64,000 bases of DNA from Tetramitus jugosus (lineage: Eukaryota; Protista; Heterolobosea). The stretch lies in the NCBI GenBank assembly GCA_937625935.1, contig OW569347.1:496001-560000 (forward strand). The letters run 5' to 3'. The notes below the pieces were generated by a model. That model was not told the origin of the DNA. It ran no database searches and saw nothing but the letters and a program-made list of their open reading frames with translations. The translations under genes and the position numbers were made by a program. This document shows, piece after piece, positions 15,348 to 28,119 of the stretch (position 1 is its first letter; each line of letters starts with the position of its first letter).

Positions 15348-16226
15348 TTACTCTGTGGTGATCATTGATTCACCTGTGCTGTTGCTGCTCAACACGTTTT
15401 GTGCATCACTCGTACTTGTCGATCCTTGTTGTTGCTCATTGTTGATGATATTTGTTGCTTGTTTCTTAGTAGTAGTAGTTTGCTTCTTCTTTTGATTGCC
15501 ATCATTCAACATGTAACGCCTAAATGTTCCACATTGACCACACGTAACAATCATGTAGCACCGATTTCGCTTGTTTGAGATTCGAACAGAGCAAGTCTCT
15601 CCTGCAATCGACAACAAGTGACACTTTTTACACAATGTTCGCTTCATATCCGAATGCAATCGAAGTACGTTCTTTGCCGATATTTTCGACAGTGTTCGAC
15701 TATAGTGTTGAGACACTTGTTTTGCATTGAGGATCGTATGCTGATGCTGATGCTGAACACTGTGTTCTGTTTCTGTTTCTGTTTCTGTTGTTTTTTCTTC
15801 AACAACTACAGATGTCATTGGCACATCGTCATCATCATCACCACCACCACCACCACCACCATGATTACTCTCATTCAAACATGTAGTGCTCTTGTTCGTC
15901 TCTATTGTTGTTGTTGTTGCAGGTCCAGTGAGTGATGCATACAATTGTTCTTGTTCCTTCATTTGCATGTGAGTGTTCATGAGTAGGTGAGATGCCTGGT
16001 AGAGGAAATTGATACGATGATAATGTAGCATGTTGGGTATGCTTGTTGTTGATGCATTCTTCTTCTTTTTTGGTTGCTGTTTTTGTTTCTGTTGATTTGG
16101 TTGGTTCTTTTTGGATTGTTGTTGTTTCTGTTTCTGTTGTTGTGTATTCTGTTGTTTGGATTGTTGTTGTTGTGACTGTAGTTGTTGGTTGGCGTTTGGC
16201 GCCTTGTTTGATGGTTGATCTTTCAT
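15348..16226 (-). CDS. RPP21: RNase P subunit Rpr2/RPP21 with polyQ N-terminus
   Basis: RINFLYQAS, KRTLCKKC...VTCGQCGTFRRY zinc ribbon. Confidence 0.9.
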   Translation of the reverse strand: MKDQPSNKAPNANQQLQSQQQQSKQQNTQQQKQKQQQSKKNQPNQQKQKQQPKKKKNASTTSIPNMLHYHRINFLYQASHLLMNTHMQMKEQEQLYASLTGPATTTTIETNKSTTCLNESNHGGGGGGGDDDDDVPMTSVVVEEKTTETETETEHSVQHQHQHTILNAKQVSQHYSRTLSKISAKNVLRLHSDMKRTLCKKCHLLSIAGETCSVRISNKRNRCYMIVTCGQCGTFRRYMLNDGNQKKKQTTTTKKQATNIINNEQQQGSTSTSDAQNVLSSNSTGESMITTE

Positions 16227-16372
16227 TTTTGTTTTTGTTTTCCTTTGTGCTTTCTAAGTTGAACCGGAGTTATTCTGAACAGGGAAACAGGAGCGAACTG
16301 ACATTCATCATCGCAACCTTGCAAAACATATCCACACAGAAATATCAATACTCGTACACACAGACACCTGAT

Positions 16373-17254
16373 ATGAAATCGATTGTACTGGTCTTTATTG
16401 TTATCGTTGCAGTCTTAACTGTTTTCGTTTCCTCCTATCAAGGTAGTGACTCATCCTATCCGTTGCCCTTCTCCAGACAATTGTCCAAGGGCAGCTCTGG
16501 CAACGATGTTCGCATTCTGCAGCAATTAATCAAGAGATGTTCGGCTGTGCCATCAGGATTAAAGATGCAGGACAAGGTGTTTGACCAGGCAACTGTCACT
16601 GGACTCGCTGCCTACCAGAAGCATTTTGGATTGTCGAGCAGTGGAGTGATGGATGTCACTACGGCAAAGTCGTTATTGTCAAGTGAGTTGCAAGATGGAT
16701 TCAAGCCCATTTATTGCCGAGAGGGTGTAGCAACAGCGCTGCCATTGCCATACAAGTATCTAGTTGATATTCCAATCTTTTTCAATCGTTCAATCGAAAC
16801 AACCGGTACACTGTTTGACAGCAAGTGCAATGCACTGCATACGTTCAGAGTGAGAACCCATGGACAAAAGGAGTACAATGAGCTGACATCAAACGGAAAC
16901 ACACCTACTGGTCTGTATACCTTTGATTTGAACACTCCAGAACCTGATCCAAAGTCCTATGGTCCATACAATGTGAATCGAGCTGTGCTTGGATTGAGAG
17001 GCAATGCAAGAGTGATCATTCCAGAAATTAGAAATGGAATCTTGTTGCACACTGGTGAATGGGACAACTGGAACCCTAGTCTTCCTATGCCAAATTCTCA
17101 TGGTTGCATGCATTCACACCCTGCTGACATCAAACTGATATCTGAGATTTTAACCGAGAAGTTGGGAGTCAAGGCTCATGAGAATCCATTCGGAAAGCTT
17201 CCATATCCTTTTGAACCACAAGGTTTGCTCAGTATTTGGGTGAAATCCAACTAA
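16373..17254 (+). CDS. Secreted peptidoglycan-binding + YkuD-type L,D-transpeptidase-like protein
   Basis: Signal peptide MKSIVLVFIVIVAVL; LSKGSSGNDVRILQQL..FDQATVTGLAAYQKHFGL..SGVMD (PG_binding_1); TPTGLY and ILLH-x15-SHGC. Confidence 0.8.
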   Translation: MKSIVLVFIVIVAVLTVFVSSYQGSDSSYPLPFSRQLSKGSSGNDVRILQQLIKRCSAVPSGLKMQDKVFDQATVTGLAAYQKHFGLSSSGVMDVTTAKSLLSSELQDGFKPIYCREGVATALPLPYKYLVDIPIFFNRSIETTGTLFDSKCNALHTFRVRTHGQKEYNELTSNGNTPTGLYTFDLNTPEPDPKSYGPYNVNRAVLGLRGNARVIIPEIRNGILLHTGEWDNWNPSLPMPNSHGCMHSHPADIKLISEILTEKLGVKAHENPFGKLPYPFEPQGLLSIWVKSN

Positions 17255-19454: not shown

Positions 19455-20609
19455 ATGGCCGTAGGAGACGTAATCGATTTATTCGATCTTGATAACTTGA
19501 AGGACAAAATCAAAGACAACAAAAAGGCCGTTATTATTGGCGCCATTATTGCCGCCGTCGTAGTCGGAGTCATCCTTGTCGGTATTATTGGAATCATTGT
19601 CGTGAGAAAGAATAGCGGTGGTGGTGGCACGACCAAACCAAAGGTCAATGAATCTCTCCACTTGCTCAACATGAAGCAAATCACAAACGGAGGAACCAAT
19701 GCAGAAGCTTACTGGAGCTATGATGGCAAGAGACTCGTCTTCCAAGGTATTCGAGGCAACGACAGTGTCTGTGATCAGATTTATGTGATGAATGCAGATG
19801 GATCCGATGTCAAGTTTGCATCGAATGGCAAGGGAAGAACCACATGTGGCTTTTTCCTCAATGACACTCACATTGTCTATGGTAGCACAATGGACACGAT
19901 GGGCAAGGGATGTCCACCAAACCCTGATTCCTCCTTTGGTTATGTCTGGCCAGTGTACAAGACAATGGACATTTATGTGGCAGAGTGGAGAACTGGACAA
20001 GTCGTTGCTCAATTGACAAATGGAGGAGGATATAACTCTGAAGCTACATTGAGCCCTGATGGTAAGAAGATTGTGTTCACATCGGCTAGAGATGGAGATT
20101 TGGAGTTGTATTCGATGAATGTGGATGGATCAGAAGTCAAGAGATTGACTTATTCACCTGGTTATGATGGAGGTGCATTCTTCAGTAACGATGGTAGCAA
20201 GATTGTGTGGAGAGCCAACAGACCAAGAGGTCAGAATTTGACAAATTATTTGAACTTGTTGGATTTGGGTCTTGTGGAACCAGTGGCCACAGACATGGAT
20301 CTGTATGTCATGGATGCTGATGGACAAAATCAAAAGAAGGTTGCTTCCATTGGTGGTGCCAACTTTTCACCATACTTCCTCCCAGACGACTCTGGTATTA
20401 TCTTTGCATCCAATATGAACAATGGATTCAACTTCCACTTGTACACCATTGATTTGAATGGTAAGAACTTGAAGCAGATTACATCTGAGGGAACATTCAA
20501 CTCATTCCCAATGTTCAGTCCTGATGGAAAGTACTTGGCATTTGAATCTAACCGTGGTGTCAAGTCACGTCACGAAATGAACGTGTTCATTGCCGAATGG
20601 AAACCATAA
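19455..20609 (+). CDS. TolB-like/PD40 beta-propeller with N-terminal membrane anchor
   Basis: Repeats WSYDGKRLVF, LSPDGKKIVF, FSNDGSKIVW, FSPDGKYLAF; hydrophobic span around aa 25-50. Confidence 0.9.
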   Translation: MAVGDVIDLFDLDNLKDKIKDNKKAVIIGAIIAAVVVGVILVGIIGIIVVRKNSGGGGTTKPKVNESLHLLNMKQITNGGTNAEAYWSYDGKRLVFQGIRGNDSVCDQIYVMNADGSDVKFASNGKGRTTCGFFLNDTHIVYGSTMDTMGKGCPPNPDSSFGYVWPVYKTMDIYVAEWRTGQVVAQLTNGGGYNSEATLSPDGKKIVFTSARDGDLELYSMNVDGSEVKRLTYSPGYDGGAFFSNDGSKIVWRANRPRGQNLTNYLNLLDLGLVEPVATDMDLYVMDADGQNQKKVASIGGANFSPYFLPDDSGIIFASNMNNGFNFHLYTIDLNGKNLKQITSEGTFNSFPMFSPDGKYLAFESNRGVKSRHEMNVFIAEWKP

Positions 20610-20642: not shown

Positions 20643-22079
20643 TTATTTATTGTTACTGTTGTCTTTGATGTATTGCAGTTTGATCTGCTGTATTCTCTGA
20701 GCCTTATCAAAATGTCCCGCCTTATTGAATCCATAAATTAATAAATCAAATGTTGTTATGTCTGGATACAGCATTTGTTGAAATATCTTGGTTGCTGTTT
20801 TTGTGTCCCCCTCGACTGATGCTATCCGCAGCAGTGCGTTCTCTGGTTCTGGATTCTCCTCATGTAATTTTCTTTGCTTTGCAATTTCAAAAATTTGTTT
20901 GCACAATGGGAATAATGGTGTATCAATAGTTGAGTATGACAATGCTGACAGTGCAAACATGCAATTGACATCTGGACACAGATCCGAATGCAAATACTCC
21001 AACAATGGTCCACTATTTGTCACCAAATATTGAGAAATAGTATTGTGAATGTTCCTGGATTGACTCTTGAGTAAATTTCGAGCCTTTCTCCAATAGTGCA
21101 CCACCGTGGCAATATTTTCAAAGCTTGGCTCCACTGAGCACAAACGTTGAACCACAGGAGCAAATGTTTGCACAGTGGGCTTCAAAACATTACCATTCAA
21201 AACCTCATTCAACAATGTCATTGCTTCATCAACCTGATTCAATTGACATCTCAATTGAATCGCATCATTGTACGCAGCAATCACCGGAACAACAAACAAT
21301 GTCCTCGATTGATTGAAAAAGTCAAACAATGGCACATAATTCTCACTCGTTACCCAATCACTCGACTTGATCCGTTTCATGATTTGATACAGAGTGTTCT
21401 GATCAAACTTTGTAAACGATTCATCCAACACAGATCGATAAAAGAAATTCATAGTCTCTTCCAAGTCATAACCATACTTTAAATGAATCTTCAACAACAA
21501 ATTATAGGTGTCTTCATTCTTTTGTAATCGAAACAGACCAAAATCCTTCATCAACTCATTCACGTGTTCTCTCTCGATAATGAACTTTCCATTCCAGTCT
21601 TGCACTTTACTACCATTATTATTAATATTATTATTGTTGGGATTGTTGTTGGGATTGTTGTGATTGACCAATAGCTTAAACATTTCATTCCAACATGCAA
21701 TATTCGAATAAAATTGATCAGAGCTCATCAACATTCGATGCAAATGGCTCCATCGCTTCAATGTCAGAGATTCATTGGACTTGAGAACGAAATGATACGG
21801 TGCAGCTCTCATTTTATTCAAACGATAACTGTTCAAGTGGTATCGAGTACGTGGTTGTTCCTTAAATTTACATTGATTTTGTTGTTGTTGTTGATGATGA
21901 TGATGTGGTTGTTGTTGTTGTTGTTGTTGGTGATGAAAATTGTAACCACTACTGTTGTTTTTGGCGCCAACTGAGTTCAATGAACTTTGAGAGTAGAATC
22001 GAATGGAGTGAGGTTGAGTGGGAAAGGGAGTGACTGAAGCTTTGATGGGCGTGGAGAGTCGCACAAGTGTGGATCTCAT
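20643..22079 (-). CDS. Pentatricopeptide repeat (PPR) protein, likely mitochondrial
   Basis: TYNLLLK, AYNDAI..VDEAMTLL..KPTVQTF, PDITTFDLLIYGF..AGHFDKA; presequence-like N-terminus. Confidence 0.8.
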   Translation of the reverse strand: MRSTLVRLSTPIKASVTPFPTQPHSIRFYSQSSLNSVGAKNNSSGYNFHHQQQQQQQPHHHHQQQQQNQCKFKEQPRTRYHLNSYRLNKMRAAPYHFVLKSNESLTLKRWSHLHRMLMSSDQFYSNIACWNEMFKLLVNHNNPNNNPNNNNINNNGSKVQDWNGKFIIEREHVNELMKDFGLFRLQKNEDTYNLLLKIHLKYGYDLEETMNFFYRSVLDESFTKFDQNTLYQIMKRIKSSDWVTSENYVPLFDFFNQSRTLFVVPVIAAYNDAIQLRCQLNQVDEAMTLLNEVLNGNVLKPTVQTFAPVVQRLCSVEPSFENIATVVHYWRKARNLLKSQSRNIHNTISQYLVTNSGPLLEYLHSDLCPDVNCMFALSALSYSTIDTPLFPLCKQIFEIAKQRKLHEENPEPENALLRIASVEGDTKTATKIFQQMLYPDITTFDLLIYGFNKAGHFDKAQRIQQIKLQYIKDNSNNK

Positions 22080-22165
22080 TCCTTACGTGATTTATGGTTG
22101 TGGTGTGTTTCGTGTTCTCTTTTGCATTCAAATTCAAACACAAAAAACGGGAGGAGTTTTGTGAA

Positions 22166-22175
22166 ATAATCCGAT
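22166..22175 (+). repeat. Left copy of 10-bp direct repeat ATAATCCGAT
   Basis: Identical to 26157-26166; both preceded by TTTTGTGA and followed by TTGTAATT. Confidence 0.5.
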
Positions 22176-22433
22176 GTGAGAAATTGTAATTCTGTGCGAA
22201 GAGAGGAACAATGAATCGCCTTTAATTTTGGTTATGTTCATATTTGGTATTTACGAATAACGAATGAATAGTTCTTGTCATTAAAGTAACTGTAACACTT
22301 ATTGGTTTGTGAACTAGGTATTTGTTTATGTCCAGTTAGCCTCTGGACATTGTGAGCGACATCTGTACAAAGCCATTGGTACCGAGAATAACGAATAGCT
22401 GACTCAGACGACGAATTGGGAACCCTTCAGTAT

Positions 22434-22700
22434 TTACAAGTGAACTTCTACTGCGTCGTTCAACATAGAAGCACGTATGGCTTGTACTGTCAATAGGTCA
22501 TCCACAACAATGTCAACTGGCCGGTGCAACACGTCCTATTTCTATGGCGATTTGAGCCCTCTGTCACACGAGGATTTGGACTTGGGATTAACTGTAAATT
22601 GTCTCTGTACACTTGCAATACCTTCTGACTGGAAATACCTTTCACTTTGTACATGGTTAGATTCAACCGTTCAACGGCAATTGTCAAGAATGGAACTCAT
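22434..22700 (-). pseudogene. Decayed minimal nucleotidyltransferase (MNT copy 2)
   Basis: MSSILDNCR*..RYFQSEGIASVQ..[GS/DxD block absent]..GLK../DVLHRPVDIVVDDLLTVQAIRASMLNDAVEVHL*; C-terminus matches the MNT consensus LGRxVDLV...IL.EA. Confidence 0.65.
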
Positions 22701-22788
22701 GTCACTGACATTGACCAGTGTTTACAAAAACCAACACTTGTTGTGCATTGATACAGAAATCAAATTTATATTTACATGAAGTATATCC

Positions 22789-23119
22789 TCAGTTGTTCAA
22801 TTGAGAGGTCAGAGAGTCAATCACTCCCTGCAAAAAAGTGATATCGTCAGGCACCAGCGCCAAAGAATTGTAAACAAGTTTTGGATCAACCTTGTCGTAT
22901 TGATGGAGCAAGAAATCCTTCAACTTTGCAATCTTAGACAACTTCTTCGACTGTTCTTCGTCCAAGTGGAGACCAATGGTAGAACACGCCTTTGTGCATC
23001 GTTTTGCTGCTTCGCCTGAAAGTGTGAACCAATTACAAACAGCACTATGCTTCTCCTCGTTTGCTAGGTAGTCGTTCAACGTGACATTTTCGAGAGATTG
23101 ATGAGAAGTTTTTAATCAT
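22789..23119 (-). CDS. DUF86/HepT-like HEPN domain protein (5' end frameshifted or pseudogene)
   Basis: TLNDYLANEEKHSAV..FTLSGEAAKR..KLKDFLLHQYDKVDPKLVY resembles DUF86 (GEA.K, Rx4HxY..VD); ATG 23119 is in frame only if the A5 run is A4. Confidence 0.75.
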
Positions 23120-23193
23120 TTCCTATTTTTCAAATAAAATTTCTTTGCACCGAGTAAAACAAGGAATTTCCTGTTGGTCGAAAAAACAAGAAC

Positions 23194-23454
23194 ATGTGGC
23201 AACCAACCCCTCACGCTTACAAGAATCCCTTTGCCTCTCAACCAGTGCAAAGCACGAACGAAGCCATTCCATTAATCAAACCCATCTTGAAGAAGCATGG
23301 AGTAAATTCGGCAAAGATTGTAGGTTCCTTGGCAAGAAACAAACACAGAGATGAGAGTGATGTAGATATCCTTGTAACCTTTATCCCTGAAGTAAGAAGT
23401 TCAATGAATATGATGGATATCATAGACCTCCAAACAGAAGCAGAAGGAGTGTGA
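23194..23454 (+). CDS. Minimal nucleotidyltransferase (MntA-like), C-terminally truncated
   Basis: ILKKHGV..IVGS-LARNKHRDES-DVDILV = GSx10DxD; stops before the LGRxVD strand. Confidence 0.8.
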   Translation: MWQPTPHAYKNPFASQPVQSTNEAIPLIKPILKKHGVNSAKIVGSLARNKHRDESDVDILVTFIPEVRSSMNMMDIIDLQTEAEGV

Positions 23455-23524
23455 TTCCACATTTCTTGGCAAATGACCCAAACTTTCAGTTCTATTGACC
23501 AATAAATTTTCTGAAAGTTGAAAA

Positions 23525-24439
23525 ATGGAGCATTCATTATTGTATTCGAAAGACTATCACCAATACCTAGAGAGAAAGAGGAACATTAATGAGCAAAGAA
23601 GGAGAACTTCTGTTCGAAATGCAATACTCATCACTCTTGTTGCCATCTTGTTGTCATCCTTGGGACCAGAAGTTGCTAAGAATTGCACCAGAGTTGTTGT
23701 GAACAAGTACAACAGTGCGACAAGATATTTCGAAGAGAAATCAAAAGAGAGAGCCTTGATAAAGAAGGCAAGAGAGTTGGAATCTGCAAAGGTAGAGAAG
23801 GAAAGAGTGAGACAATTGGCAATTGTAAAGGAACAAAAGAATAGAGAATCGTTCAATAGAATTGTTCAGAAGAGAAGAAGAGAGAGGGACCAGCATCAAC
23901 AACAGATTCAGATTAATATTCATTCTCTGAAGGGGTTGATAGGTCAATTGTTTGGAATGAAGCCTACTTTGCAATGGAGTGAGTTACTCACACAAGAGGC
24001 GTACCGAGGAGCGAAGGAGATTGTCCTTGGAGGTATTCCAACTTATGATCTTACCCCGTTATCAGAAAGAGTCAACAAGAAATTCACTTTTCTTGAGCGA
24101 TTAACATCATCCTGCAGTGTCTTCTTTTATGGCTACACGGCTTATGGGCAATGCGCTCCTCACCCGACACTTGAAGAAGCTTTGATTGAATGGAAGGTGA
24201 AGGATGTATCTGAGCAATTCAAAAGTTCAACCCATGTTGGATATGAAAGATATGGAATCTGTAGCAAAACGGCACTCATACTTTTCCTTTGTAACAAAGA
24301 TCCACCTGGTGCGGCTATCGTGTTTACTCACGAGTATTTGAACCCAAAATATGATCCATCTGTTGATTATACTCATCAAGAGAGTCTTGGTCTCCCAGAA
24401 TGGGTTGAAAATATGATAGAGAACTGGTTCGGAAAGTAG
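23525..24439 (+). CDS. Single-TM coiled-coil protein with possible divergent CAP/SCP domain
   Basis: Hydrophobic AILITLVAILLSSL; charged helix; LQWSELL..A..A...ERV...ALIEW pattern. Confidence 0.6.
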   Translation: MEHSLLYSKDYHQYLERKRNINEQRRRTSVRNAILITLVAILLSSLGPEVAKNCTRVVVNKYNSATRYFEEKSKERALIKKARELESAKVEKERVRQLAIVKEQKNRESFNRIVQKRRRERDQHQQQIQINIHSLKGLIGQLFGMKPTLQWSELLTQEAYRGAKEIVLGGIPTYDLTPLSERVNKKFTFLERLTSSCSVFFYGYTAYGQCAPHPTLEEALIEWKVKDVSEQFKSSTHVGYERYGICSKTALILFLCNKDPPGAAIVFTHEYLNPKYDPSVDYTHQESLGLPEWVENMIENWFGK

Positions 24440-24684
24440 TTGTAATGCAACGATTAAAGGAATCATGATATCTAAGATGTTATTTCTGTTGGACAAAGGA
24501 CAAGTACCTGGAAATGTAAAGTGTATCGATCTACTAAGACTATTGAGGTCAACATACCAGCAATGAATCCTCCATAATGCGTCATGTTGTTCCAGTGTTC
24601 ACTTCTAATAAAAATAAAGATAACATCATAACAGTCAAAAAATTTACTGCATTTGAGTGCTACTGCTTTTGTGATGTGGAGTAG

Positions 24685-25035
24685 TTAAAAGCGTCGATAA
24701 CCAGCTTGGTGTTGTCTTTCTTCCTTCTTTTGACCCCCAAACAGATACCACAACACCCCAATCACCCAAATAGCATCAACAATCATCAACAAGATGGTCA
24801 AGTCCCTGTCGTGTTCACTACAGTAGTCTCCAGAAAGCAATCCCCATATACTTTGAGCACTTCTTCTTTGGAAGATGAGAGCTCGAATACAGGTGATGTA
24901 GGTCAGGTTTACAAATCCAAGGAGCAGGGTAACAGTAACAAGGAATTTGGCTGTTGCATCCCCTGGAATTACATAGTACACACCAGCAATTGTAGCAATA
25001 GTTTGCCAAAATTTATCGTCTTGTTGTCTTCTCAT
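24685..25035 (-). CDS. Small multi-pass membrane protein
   Basis: ATG 25035; three hydrophobic segments. Confidence 0.55.
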   Translation of the reverse strand: MRRQQDDKFWQTIATIAGVYYVIPGDATAKFLVTVTLLLGFVNLTYITCIRALIFQRRSAQSIWGLLSGDYCSEHDRDLTILLMIVDAIWVIGVLWYLFGGQKKEERQHQAGYRRF

Positions 25036-25280
25036 TCTTGTGGTTATCTTGTTAGAGGTTTCGCAGGAAAGGTTCTGGGACAATTTTTATGTGTCGGCTT
25101 TACTTTACAAAAAGTCAAGATTACAAAATCTTTCCCTGGAATTGCGCTCTTCCAGAGAGTGAGATTGGGCTTTTCACAACGAAACGTTTGTGACATGGAA
25201 TCGTTGTTTTGGTTTACTATTTTTTCTCTCGGGGTAAAGCCCATTTTTCCTTTCACTAATTGATCGAAAGAACAAATAGA

Positions 25281-26037
25281 ATGGATGTGTTGAGCACCAT
25301 CATCCCGACCAAACTCCATTTAGGTGATCAGTTTGATGCACGTTCAGTTGAATGTATCACCATAAAGAATATTTGCTGTGTAGTGAACATGGCGAGAGAG
25401 TGCACCTGTTTTTTTGAGAAGTCGTCAAGTGTGGTCACTAGTTCCTCCAATCCATTCCCAGCTCACACAGTCCAATACTTGCATATCCAGTGGACAGATC
25501 GGTTCTTTGCCAAGAAGAAGCTTGACAATGACTTTGAACTGTTCTGTGATGCAATGGAGCAAATTGAATATTTTATTCAGAGGAATGTCAAGATGAATGC
25601 TGATGATATCAGGTGTGAATCTGGTTCAGTGCTCATCCATTGTATGAGTGGAGTGAATAGAAGTGCTACCGCAACTATTGGCTTTCTTATGAAACATTAT
25701 AGGATCTGTGTCCATGCTTAACTCATACGAGATTGTCAAGAAACAGAGACCTATAATCTCTCCATCTACATTCTACATTCAAATGTTACTGAAATATCAA
25801 ACACATCTGTTTGATACGTGTGAGGAATATAGAAGAGAATTTGATCGAAAAGTGGACTCTGCCATGAACTTGAGTGATAGATCTCTATTGCAGAAGTTGT
25901 CGTATGAACCACTTAGATTGGCTTACCGAGGCCTAAAGCCACAATATAGTCATGTACTACTTGCACACTGGGCTGACACAAGTAGGTTGCCTACTCAACA
26001 GGAATGGGACAAGGTTTTTGAGATTTTAGATTCTTAG
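25281..26037 (+). pseudogene. Dual-specificity phosphatase with one frameshift
   Basis: VLIHCMSGVNRSAT active site; removing 4 nt at ~25705-25708 gives YRMSMLNSYEIVKKQRPIISP. Confidence 0.75.
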
Positions 26038-26156
26038 TTCAATTTAATAACAGCAAAAACGAAGTTCACCAGGTTCAATATGAATCAAGTGTTTGAATAC
26101 AACCGAATTTCTATTTTAAGAGGTCAGACATTTTGTTGTTTTTGTGACATCAGGAG

Positions 26157-26166
26157 ATAATCCGAT
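26157..26166 (+). repeat. Right copy of 10-bp direct repeat ATAATCCGAT
   Basis: Identical to 22166-22175. Confidence 0.5.
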
Positions 26167-26253
26167 TGTAATTTGTTCGGGGTAATCATATGTATTTTCA
26201 ATCAAAAACGAAAAATCAAAATTCTCATCCACACAACCACAAACAAACGAAGA

Positions 26254-28119
26254 ATGCAGAAGCGATCAGTCGTTAATCGTGTGTTGCGTGCCGCGCAGGC
26301 CAAGAAGAAGCAACCCTTGATCCATTGCCGATCTACACCACTCAATCAACAACCACAACAACAACAACAAGTAAGATTCATCAGCAGTCACAACAACGCT
26401 ACCACTCAAAAGAAGCACTTGACCAATGTCAACTTGTTCAAACCAACGAGACCGCTCCTTCAACAACAAGAGGAAGAAACAGTTGAGCGTGAGTCCATTG
26501 AATTTGATGTTGTGATTGTCGGTGGTGGACCATCTGGTCTTGCATCTGCCATTACGCTGAAAAAGTTGGCCAATGAAGCAGGAATGGAAGATTTTACAGT
26601 GTGCTTGATTGATAAAGGACAAGATATTGGATCTCACATCTTGTCTGGTGCTTGCATGGAACCAAGATCCCTGTACGAAATGTTTGGAAAGGATGATTTG
26701 GAGGGAGCACCATTGAACAACCCTGCCACCAAGGATAAAATGTATTTGTTGACAGAGAAGAATGCAATTCCATTGCCTACCATTCCCCAAATGCACAATG
26801 AAGGAAACTATATTATTTCACTGGGTCAGATGTGTAAGTGGTTGTCTTCGAGAGCCGAGGAATTGGGTGTTGATATCTATACTGGATTCGCTGCGGATAA
26901 CATTTTGTATCATGAAGATGGTTCAGTGAAGGGTATCGTGACAAAGGATGCTGGTATTGCCAAGGATGGATCCATCAAGGACACATTTGAACCAGGTATG
27001 GAGTTGCATGCCAAGATGACTATATTTGCCGAAGGTTGCAGAGGATCCTTGACCAAGAAGCTCTATGAGAATCAACAATTCAAACTGAGAGAAGACTGTC
27101 AACCTCAGACTTATGCACTCGGCATCAAGGAAATTTGGGAAGTGGACAATGATAAGTTTGATAAGGGATTGGTGATGCACAGTGCTGGTTGGCCAATGGA
27201 TCAGAGCACATATGGTGGCTCGTGGATGTACCACTATGATGAAAACAAAATTTCTGTTGGATTTGTGATGGCTCTCGACTACAAGAATCCTACAATGAGC
27301 CCATATCAGGAGTTCCAGAGATTGAAGCATCATCCGAAGTTTTCTCCATTCTTGAAGAATGGAAAGTGCATTGCTTATGGTGCTAGAACATTGAGTGAAG
27401 GTGGTTATGTCAGTATTCCAAAGTTGCAATTCCCTGGTGGTATTTTGGTTGGTGATACAGCTGGATTCTTGAACTTACCAAAGATTAAGGGTATTCACAC
27501 CGCGATGAAGTCAGGTATTTTGGGAGCTGAGTCCGTATTCGAGGCATTGAAGGCAGGAAAGAACTTAGCAGATACATATCAACAAAGATTTAAGGAATCA
27601 TGGTTGCATGAGGAACTCTATGGTGTAAGAAACATTAGACAATACTTCCACTATGGTTTGTATCCTGCCTTGTTCTTGTCCGGCCTAGATGCAATGATCC
27701 TGAGATCTCATACACCATGGACATTGAATCATCCAGGGCCAGATAACGAGCAAACCTTGAAGATTAACGAAGTTACGCCAATCAAATATCCAAAGCCTGA
27801 TGGTGTATTGAGCTTCGATTTGCTCACAAACTTGACCAGATCTGGAACCAATCACAACCACGATCAACCAGCTCACTTGAAACTAAAGAACAAGGATATC
27901 CCAGTGGATGTGAACTTGAAGCAATACGGAGGTCCAGAACAATACTATTGTCCAGCAAAGGTCTACGAATTCCATACTGACGAGAGTGGAAAGAGCAGAT
28001 TGCAAATTAATGCCCAAAACTGTTTGCATTGCAAGGCCTGCGATATCAAGGATCCAAAGCAAAACATTGACTGGACAGTACCAGAAGGAGGAGGTGGTCC
28101 AGCTTACAACATTATGTAA
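26254..28119 (+). CDS. ETFDH: Electron transfer flavoprotein-ubiquinone oxidoreductase
   Basis: DVVIVGGGPSGL, GSHILSGA, AEGCRGSL, KIKGIHTAMKSG, CPAKVYE..NCLHCKACDIKDP. Confidence 0.98.
   Translation: MQKRSVVNRVLRAAQAKKKQPLIHCRSTPLNQQPQQQQQVRFISSHNNATTQKKHLTNVNLFKPTRPLLQQQEEETVERESIEFDVVIVGGGPSGLASAITLKKLANEAGMEDFTVCLIDKGQDIGSHILSGACMEPRSLYEMFGKDDLEGAPLNNPATKDKMYLLTEKNAIPLPTIPQMHNEGNYIISLGQMCKWLSSRAEELGVDIYTGFAADNILYHEDGSVKGIVTKDAGIAKDGSIKDTFEPGMELHAKMTIFAEGCRGSLTKKLYENQQFKLREDCQPQTYALGIKEIWEVDNDKFDKGLVMHSAGWPMDQSTYGGSWMYHYDENKISVGFVMALDYKNPTMSPYQEFQRLKHHPKFSPFLKNGKCIAYGARTLSEGGYVSIPKLQFPGGILVGDTAGFLNLPKIKGIHTAMKSGILGAESVFEALKAGKNLADTYQQRFKESWLHEELYGVRNIRQYFHYGLYPALFLSGLDAMILRSHTPWTLNHPGPDNEQTLKINEVTPIKYPKPDGVLSFDLLTNLTRSGTNHNHDQPAHLKLKNKDIPVDVNLKQYGGPEQYYCPAKVYEFHTDESGKSRLQINAQNCLHCKACDIKDPKQNIDWTVPEGGGGPAYNIM

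Follow-up and report, generated by a model that had tools for sequence, protein, structure and literature searches.

The window analysed here, a 64,000-nucleotide stretch of Tetramitus jugosus contig OW569347.1, is gene-dense eukaryotic DNA. Its host was recognized as a eukaryote by a 103-nt GT-AG intron that restores the GDI frame and by an eL15 protein whose best matches are eukaryotic chains. The window contains a HEPN gene and a minimal nucleotidyltransferase (MNT) gene placed head-to-head, with a PPR gene, a dual-specificity phosphatase and an ETF-ubiquinone oxidoreductase (ETFDH) as neighbours (Table 1). Both members of the pair scored above Pfam cut-offs, which bore out the reading in the initial annotation of a prokaryote-type HEPN/MNT pair in a eukaryotic chromosome. 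Two further genes of bacterial type lie nearby on the plus strand, one with a peptidoglycan-binding and a YkuD domain (16013-17254) and one for a membrane-anchored PD40 (TolB-like) propeller (19455-20609), both according to Pfam.

Table 1. Features of the HEPN/MNT locus, in window coordinates.
Feature	Position	Strand	Basis
PPR gene (host), left flank	20643..22079	-	Pfam
One-haplotype island, 2,919 bp: HEPN/MNT module, 304-aa ORF and 116-aa membrane ORF	22215..25133		X1 joint, depths
MNT C-terminal third, 33 residues and stop, holds third catalytic Asp	22434..22537	-	91% identity to P0004 C-terminus; joined to 23434 in X4/X5
899-bp block, inverted: its orientation in the window's strain is opposite to that in the groundwater strain	22536..23434		Opposite-strand joints in X4/X5
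HEPN (DUF86/HepT-like), frameshifted near start; 100 codons in frame from 23091	22789..23119	-	Pfam, AlphaFold
K-D-F-L-L-H-Q-Y, i.e. RX4HXY in which Lys replaces Arg, the His and the acceptor Tyr being retained	22897..22920	-	Sequence; Lys also in P0140
8-nt deletion breaking the HEPN frame	23093..23094		8 letters inserted behind 23093 in one X4 contig
Spacer between divergent start codons, 74 bp, candidate two-way promoter	23120..23193		Sequence
MNT, N-terminal two thirds; runs to stop 23452-23454 past inversion junction	23194..23434	+	Pfam, sequence
GSx10DxD motif (GS, 10 residues, DVD)	23323..23367	+	Exact in sequence
ORF304, 304 aa, whole, no known family, within island	23525..24439	+	Sequence and profile searches
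116-aa ORF, two hydrophobic stretches, no family, within island	24685..25035	-	Profile searches
Dual-specificity phosphatase (host), right flank	25281..26037	+	Pfam DSPc on both pieces

The HEPN frame (22789-23115, minus strand) matched the Pfam HepT-like family PF01934 with 37.8 bits (cut-off 23.5), and the MNT frame (23158-23454, plus strand) matched Polbeta with 30.6 bits (cut-off 26.9) and NTP_transf_2 with 27.8 bits (cut-off 21). The DUF86/HepT and NTP_transf_2/MNT assignments proposed earlier thus both held. The MNT frame also matched PADLOC PDC-S09 models, and sequence matches in the PDB were to HEPN toxins for HEPN and to a minimal nucleotidyltransferase for MNT. With the NCBIfam HepT/MntA equivalogs (cut-off 60 bits), the window pair scored 28.7 and 22.4 bits and whole MNT relatives 36-38 bits, three of the four bacterial controls also staying below the cut-off. 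The AlphaFold model of HEPN built with 53 prokaryotic relatives as alignment had a pLDDT of 88.7; the model from the single sequence was poor (pLDDT 49.5). The structures nearest to the HEPN model in Foldseek were those of HEPN toxins (7ae6, 7ae2 and 7ae8; TM 0.72-0.76, E 0.02-0.1). The ten best matches were all HEPN toxin chains (TM 0.67-0.76, E 0.02-0.5), with none reaching E ≤ 0.001.

The closest known system is class I HepT/MntA (type VII; PF01934 + PF01909; Shewanella SO_3166/SO_3165; structures 7ae2, 7ae6, 7ae8 and 7ae9), in which, as described in PMC7641770, MntA moves AMP onto the Tyr of RX4HXY through its GSX10DXD motif and thereby blocks the RNase. The window pair resembles it in the adjoining position of the same Pfam families (class I HEPNs belong to PF01934 or PF08780), in fold and sizes (~100-117 aa), in the His-x-Tyr and in the exact GSx10DxD, the latter as first annotated. 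The pair departs from class I in the Arg, in operon layout and in intactness. The RX4HXY motif at 22920-22897 has Lys in place of Arg with the Tyr retained, as the initial annotation had also seen, and the HEPN has 6 extra residues. The genes are divergent in a eukaryotic genome, not co-directional and overlapping with MNT upstream. Here the HEPN is frameshifted and the MNT split, its third Asp sitting in a displaced piece.

The two start codons, ATG 23119-23117 for HEPN (minus strand) and ATG 23194 for MNT (plus strand), confirmed the head-to-head arrangement and its 74-bp distance; the host divergent gaps that we have measured were 206 and 496 bp. The A-rich leader proposed for these genes was present but only moderate, with 40% A before the MNT ATG and 50% before the HEPN ATG (17-67% in 24 host genes). 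We have compared this layout with 73 prokaryotic loci, and none was divergent: 65 had MNT followed by a co-directional HEPN, one was fused and one had no ORF, and the remaining six had no MNT in the sequence covered, five of these with <300 bases upstream. A fused MNT-HEPN ORF of 232 aa was seen at L008:1072-1767 (plus strand) in an Aggregatilineales genome bin. A 2026 paper (PMC13000451) describes fused MNT-HEPN forms (FhepTA) in prokaryotes and eukaryotes; such a fusion leaves both parts with a single promoter, but the window has two separate divergent genes, and the length-free HMMER search detailed below returned no fused relative. Since a co-directional operon would not be readable as two proteins from one eukaryotic mRNA, placing the genes divergently on either side of a short spacer would make the production of both possible, and the 74-bp spacer would allow co-expression of HEPN and MNT.

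DNA near-identical to the window was present in 20 runs from 15 studies, seven runs holding at least half of the words. Read-derived contigs matching the window came from sequencing runs X1, X2 and X3, the last a second sample; X4 and X5 are groundwater-strain runs, both from one independent study. These contigs allowed both lesions to be located. From ATG 23119 the window's HEPN frame stops after 24 residues. The HEPN start frameshift noticed initially is real, but it is best placed at 23093/23094, as an 8-nt deletion, and not in the A5 run: the 8 extra bases that X4 has behind 23093 bring ATG 23119 into the HEPN frame. A frameshift in the A5 run fits the arithmetic too, but only the 8-nt form is seen in nature (X4).

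The MNT, initially described as truncated, is indeed broken, but by an inversion that left its C-terminal third on the other strand. Two whole MNT relatives end in the stretch that the window encodes at 22434-22535 (minus strand), and X4/X5 have joints of opposite strands at 22536/23429 and 22537/23434, the inversion ends carrying 2-nt and 6-nt microhomologies. In the X4 orientation, 23434 joins 22537 in phase over 9 letters, within which a stop is possible, to give a 117-residue MNT frame whose ungapped alignments with P0001 and P0003-P0005 contain 83-87 identities over 100-103 columns. The window's right junction has six bases once that X4 has twice, and the window is without 9 and 84 bases at the inversion ends, which indicates that its state is the derived one. 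The X2 and X3 contigs had 0 differences from the window across the lesions, so the breaks are not assembly errors. The window copy is a pseudogene pair, with both genes dead on this haplotype. Copies 84-91% alike to 22536-22662 and 22247-22313 occur elsewhere in the genome (X2 contigs), the former segment beginning exactly at the inversion breakpoint.

The length-free HMMER search with HEPN covered 1.84 billion representative proteins and gave three matches: P0140 (56% over 63 residues), an ordinary DUF86 protein (37%) and P0142, a repeat protein without a HEPN match that we took as chance. The nearest prokaryotic HEPNs were 23-38% identical to the window HEPN, and a word-index search found no relative among proteins of 59-189 aa. 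P0140 and its two cluster mates are identical where they overlap and lie on contigs of up to 2.7 kb. At three columns that hardly vary among prokaryotes, this group and the window HEPN have the same changes (W->L, G->K and R->K), and they also share a 6-residue insertion (40 residues from the GEA box to the motif vs. 34 in 51 of 53 prokaryotic rows). Between the window HEPN and P0140, identity is concentrated in the motif block (15 of 18 residues vs. 20 of 45 outside it; p 0.006) and at prokaryote-conserved columns (12 of 13 vs. 23 of 50 others; p 0.004); the His, an upstream Glu and the acceptor Tyr are kept despite 44% divergence. The shared Lys, insertion and constrained motif block mark Lys for Arg as a conserved family trait and not decay. 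The motif has been under constraint in this Lys-type HEPN family, through past selection that may predate the transfer. The P0140 frame ends two residues past D-K with V-R-stop, ~30 residues short, as either a premature stop or reading on into a GT intron would produce.

The Lys bears directly on whether this HEPN was a toxin. Arg was present in 53/53 aligned prokaryotic relatives, although the search pattern permitted Lys. The corresponding Arg->Lys change in the HEPN motif of Las1 abolishes cleavage (bioRxiv 10.1101/760058), and the Arg is required in KEN and PrrC (PMC3710099). With Lys for the catalytic Arg, the HEPN would not be a standard HepT; we predict an RNase of reduced or changed activity, or else an RNA-binding protein. 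Such data would suit a domesticated, non-toxic pair in which Lys switched the RNase off early and HEPN became an RNA-binding or substrate-presenting partner of MNT, as in other nucleotidyltransferase-tied HEPNs, among which motif loss is common according to the survey in PMC3710099; the three substitutions fixed in both the window HEPN and P0140 point the same way. We consider this quite unlikely. The retention of His, Glu and Tyr argues against it, the same survey reports toxicity even for HEPNs of MNT-HEPN pairs that lack the motif, and loss on most haplotypes seen, described below, is unexpected for a useful host regulator. Arg->Lys is a family trait, and the Lys type may have RNase activity.

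The MNT family comprises two clusters at 79-97% identity, beyond which identity drops to ≤50% over 80% of length. When the best 7,996 candidates were scored, the clusters were followed by P0015 at 77 bits, with a prokaryotic background of ≤62 bits among 1,567 matches. The MNT relatives keep the GS, the DxD and the third Asp; the whole ones were found by a protein search and are hence whole by construction. Judging from these sequences, the family keeps all parts for AMPylation, the toxic side being less sure.

Trees named no donor, with an HEPN end branch of 4.66 (quick tree, 68 of 72 rows, 85-140 aa) and MNT unplaced, and so give no support for HEPN and MNT having moved jointly. Similarity of HEPN and of MNT over 65 prokaryotic pairs was weakly anti-correlated (rho -0.25). 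A cyanobacterial likeness of the HEPN (ANEEK-x-SA) was not upheld in the tree. JGI metagenomes gave no match for six 8-residue P0004 patterns, all of which differ from the window allele, or for a degenerate motif matching the window once. In IMG/VR there was no relative of MNT, HEPN, ORF304, P0015, P0016 or P0140; a mixed alignment found 2 ordinary HEPN loci there, at 25-27%. No member of the Lys-type HEPN family occurred among 68 GTDB loci.

The module lies in an island that is present on one haplotype only, at about 22215-25133. A second X1 haplotype joins 22214 to 25246 at a depth of 17.8, where the island has 18.8 and the flank 32.8, and the loose end of this other haplotype begins with letters found at 25134. 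On the island haplotype the phosphatase is frameshifted by 4 extra bases at 25706, which X1's other haplotype does not have. A further haplotype in X4/X5 joins 22209 to 23588 via a short direct repeat. Three haplotypes thus change at one left breakpoint (near 22209-22214), a short way upstream of the PPR gene. An imperfect direct repeat (22201-22214 / 23575-23592) is seen at this groundwater join. ORF304, which is whole while its neighbours decay, encodes a protein identical to P0006, recorded on a 2,279-nt contig, and had no passing match in Pfam, NCBIfam, PADLOC, PHROG, the PDB or IMG/VR. Rfam gave no match within 22000-26300.

The initial annotation had named a chimeric assembly with bacterial DNA as the case that would overturn its reading. 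The prokaryotic type of both genes would suit such an artefact, as would the possible origin of X1 and X2 from the window's own source sample. A 3,109-nt X1 contig nonetheless starts at 22185, crosses the island and ends at 25293, within the phosphatase gene, at half of the flank depth, although it spans the left junction by just 30 letters. The same DNA is held by the X3 sample and, with strain-specific rearrangements, by the independent X4/X5 study, in which a 2,279-nt X4 contig joins the HEPN 3' side to ORF304, its length fitting an end at 25294. The GC content of the island (0.395) is that of its flanks (0.397 and 0.413), and a divergent bacterial source has no counterpart among the 73 prokaryotic loci. 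A chimera is therefore largely refuted and, in our judgement, highly improbable.

A more serious alternative is that the module is a passive passenger: the Lys-type, head-to-head pair would have arisen in a prokaryote, virus or mobile element outside present sampling, come with the 2.9-kb insertion and decayed since. Its confinement to one haplotype, the common left breakpoint and the two further ORFs of no family in the island favour this view, as do the HEPN copies described below, all broken. The island ends, by contrast, have neither terminal repeats nor a target duplication, and sequence and profile searches found no transposon or virus hallmark genes. The family is missing from IMG/VR and the 68 GTDB loci, the divergent layout from all 73 prokaryotic loci, and the MNT is whole in several relatives at 79-97% (with the proviso, given above, on how these were found). 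Codon use and leaders are also host-like, the module having values of 0.07-0.11 compared with 0.00-0.28 for 24 host genes and -0.08 to 0.06 for seven bacterial HEPNs; as the genes are short, this and the GC content are weak evidence. We regard a passive passenger as possible, though less probable than a pair that once worked.

The read-derived contigs were also informative on paralogues and on the order of decay. X2 contained one HEPN/MNT copy at ≥ 80% likeness, at a flat depth of 31.4. In the groundwater strain the HEPN contig had a depth of 25.5 vs. 8-10 for its branches in X4, and 11.5 vs. 7-8 in X5, suggestive of two or three HEPN copies. The expectation of paralogues was thus correct for the groundwater strain, while that of intact copies is unsupported, no whole HEPN having been found in three sources: the window's is frameshifted, P0140 is ~30 residues short, and X4 is without His-x-Tyr. 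The X4 HEPN contig skips 22879-22915 with no letters between, which removes F-L-L-H-Q-Y-D-K-V-D-P-K. The X4 bin depths (23.6 and 23.8) were reproduced only if no other contig covers 22879-22915, with the reservation that contigs can drop rare variants. The HEPN copies of the groundwater strain have lost the His-x-Tyr stretch. In this collapsed HEPN contig, 3/3 substitutions between window and X4 alter the residue, a further point in favour of a passive passenger.

In the X4 contig with the in-phase MNT junction, the one gap over 23063-23434 measures 7 letters, so this contig shares the window's 8-nt HEPN deletion, which makes the toxin lesion older than the antidote lesion. It is likely that the toxin broke before the antidote, judging from one event pair and an X4 contig reaching 31 letters past the deletion site; this is the order that toxin-antitoxin logic predicts. 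The X4 HEPN copy with the 8 extra bases has a differing 5' flank at 23114 (a 220-nt loose end), whose final T-rich run followed by AG resembles a splice acceptor, and the other strand of this flank resembles the first codons of the N-terminal extension of P0001. This gives a weak hint that HEPN/MNT paralogues may also be head-to-head. The RNA runs X8 and X12 cover the PPR, phosphatase and ETFDH genes and leave the module uncovered; since their strains may lack the module, this is no evidence of silence. A 310-nt X7 contig lies over 23192-23501, contigs being unable to show transcription.

Taking these data together, we favour, with no more than middling confidence, an old horizontal transfer by which the protist gained a prokaryote-type HEPN/MNT gene pair. 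Its products were probably co-expressed and functioned in the past as toxin and antidote, and the locus is now accessory and decaying. The age of the transfer is suggested by the low identity to prokaryotic HEPNs, by the drop in identity outside the MNT clusters and, more weakly, by codon use within the host range. The MNT, with its GSx10DxD and third Asp, would AMPylate the Tyr that lies two residues past the HEPN His and so restrain a dimeric, growth-inhibiting HEPN. Lesions would have struck the toxin first (8-nt deletion, two strains), leaving the antidote free to break (inversion, window's strain only). Against a once-working pair stand the lack of a whole HEPN in the three sources, the Arg of all 53 prokaryotic relatives and the inactivity of Arg->Lys in Las1. 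We nonetheless rank a once-working toxin-antidote pair above a passive passenger, and the latter above a non-toxic regulator. A bolder version would have the protist lineage turn the type VII operon into a eukaryotic two-gene system, with a divergent promoter, a Lys-type toxin of new active-site chemistry, an AMPylating antidote and an intron in a distant relative. The system would be either a selfish toxin-antidote element or a suicide module against viruses, its spread and loss showing up as presence/absence polymorphism, with working copies in related strains or species. We think this unlikely.

HEPNs of prokaryotic origin in eukaryotes offer a precedent for such an acquisition. In the 2013 HEPN survey (PMC3710099), DUF86 (HEPN-M) is entered in Table 1 for bacteria and archaea only, and other HEPN families are described as transferred to eukaryotes: the HEPN-T of Sacsin, solo Swt1-like/Ava_2192 HEPNs of Naegleria, dictyostelids and Daphnia, and PaREP1-like HEPNs of Caenorhabditis. 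These share with the window a lateral acquisition, some being multi-copy, but they belong to other families and stand solo or in larger proteins, whereas the window has a DUF86 gene beside a separate MNT gene.

We have found no report of a separate MNT and DUF86 gene pair in a eukaryotic nucleus in the main texts of the openly licensed literature. Toxin-antitoxin systems made of two genes are seen as a prokaryotic feature. If this pair was functional in the protist, it would show how an operon survives the shift to one-gene mRNAs and would provide a natural Lys-for-Arg HEPN for testing active-site rules. It would also catch a selfish or defensive module in the course of its decay across strains, with the toxin going first.
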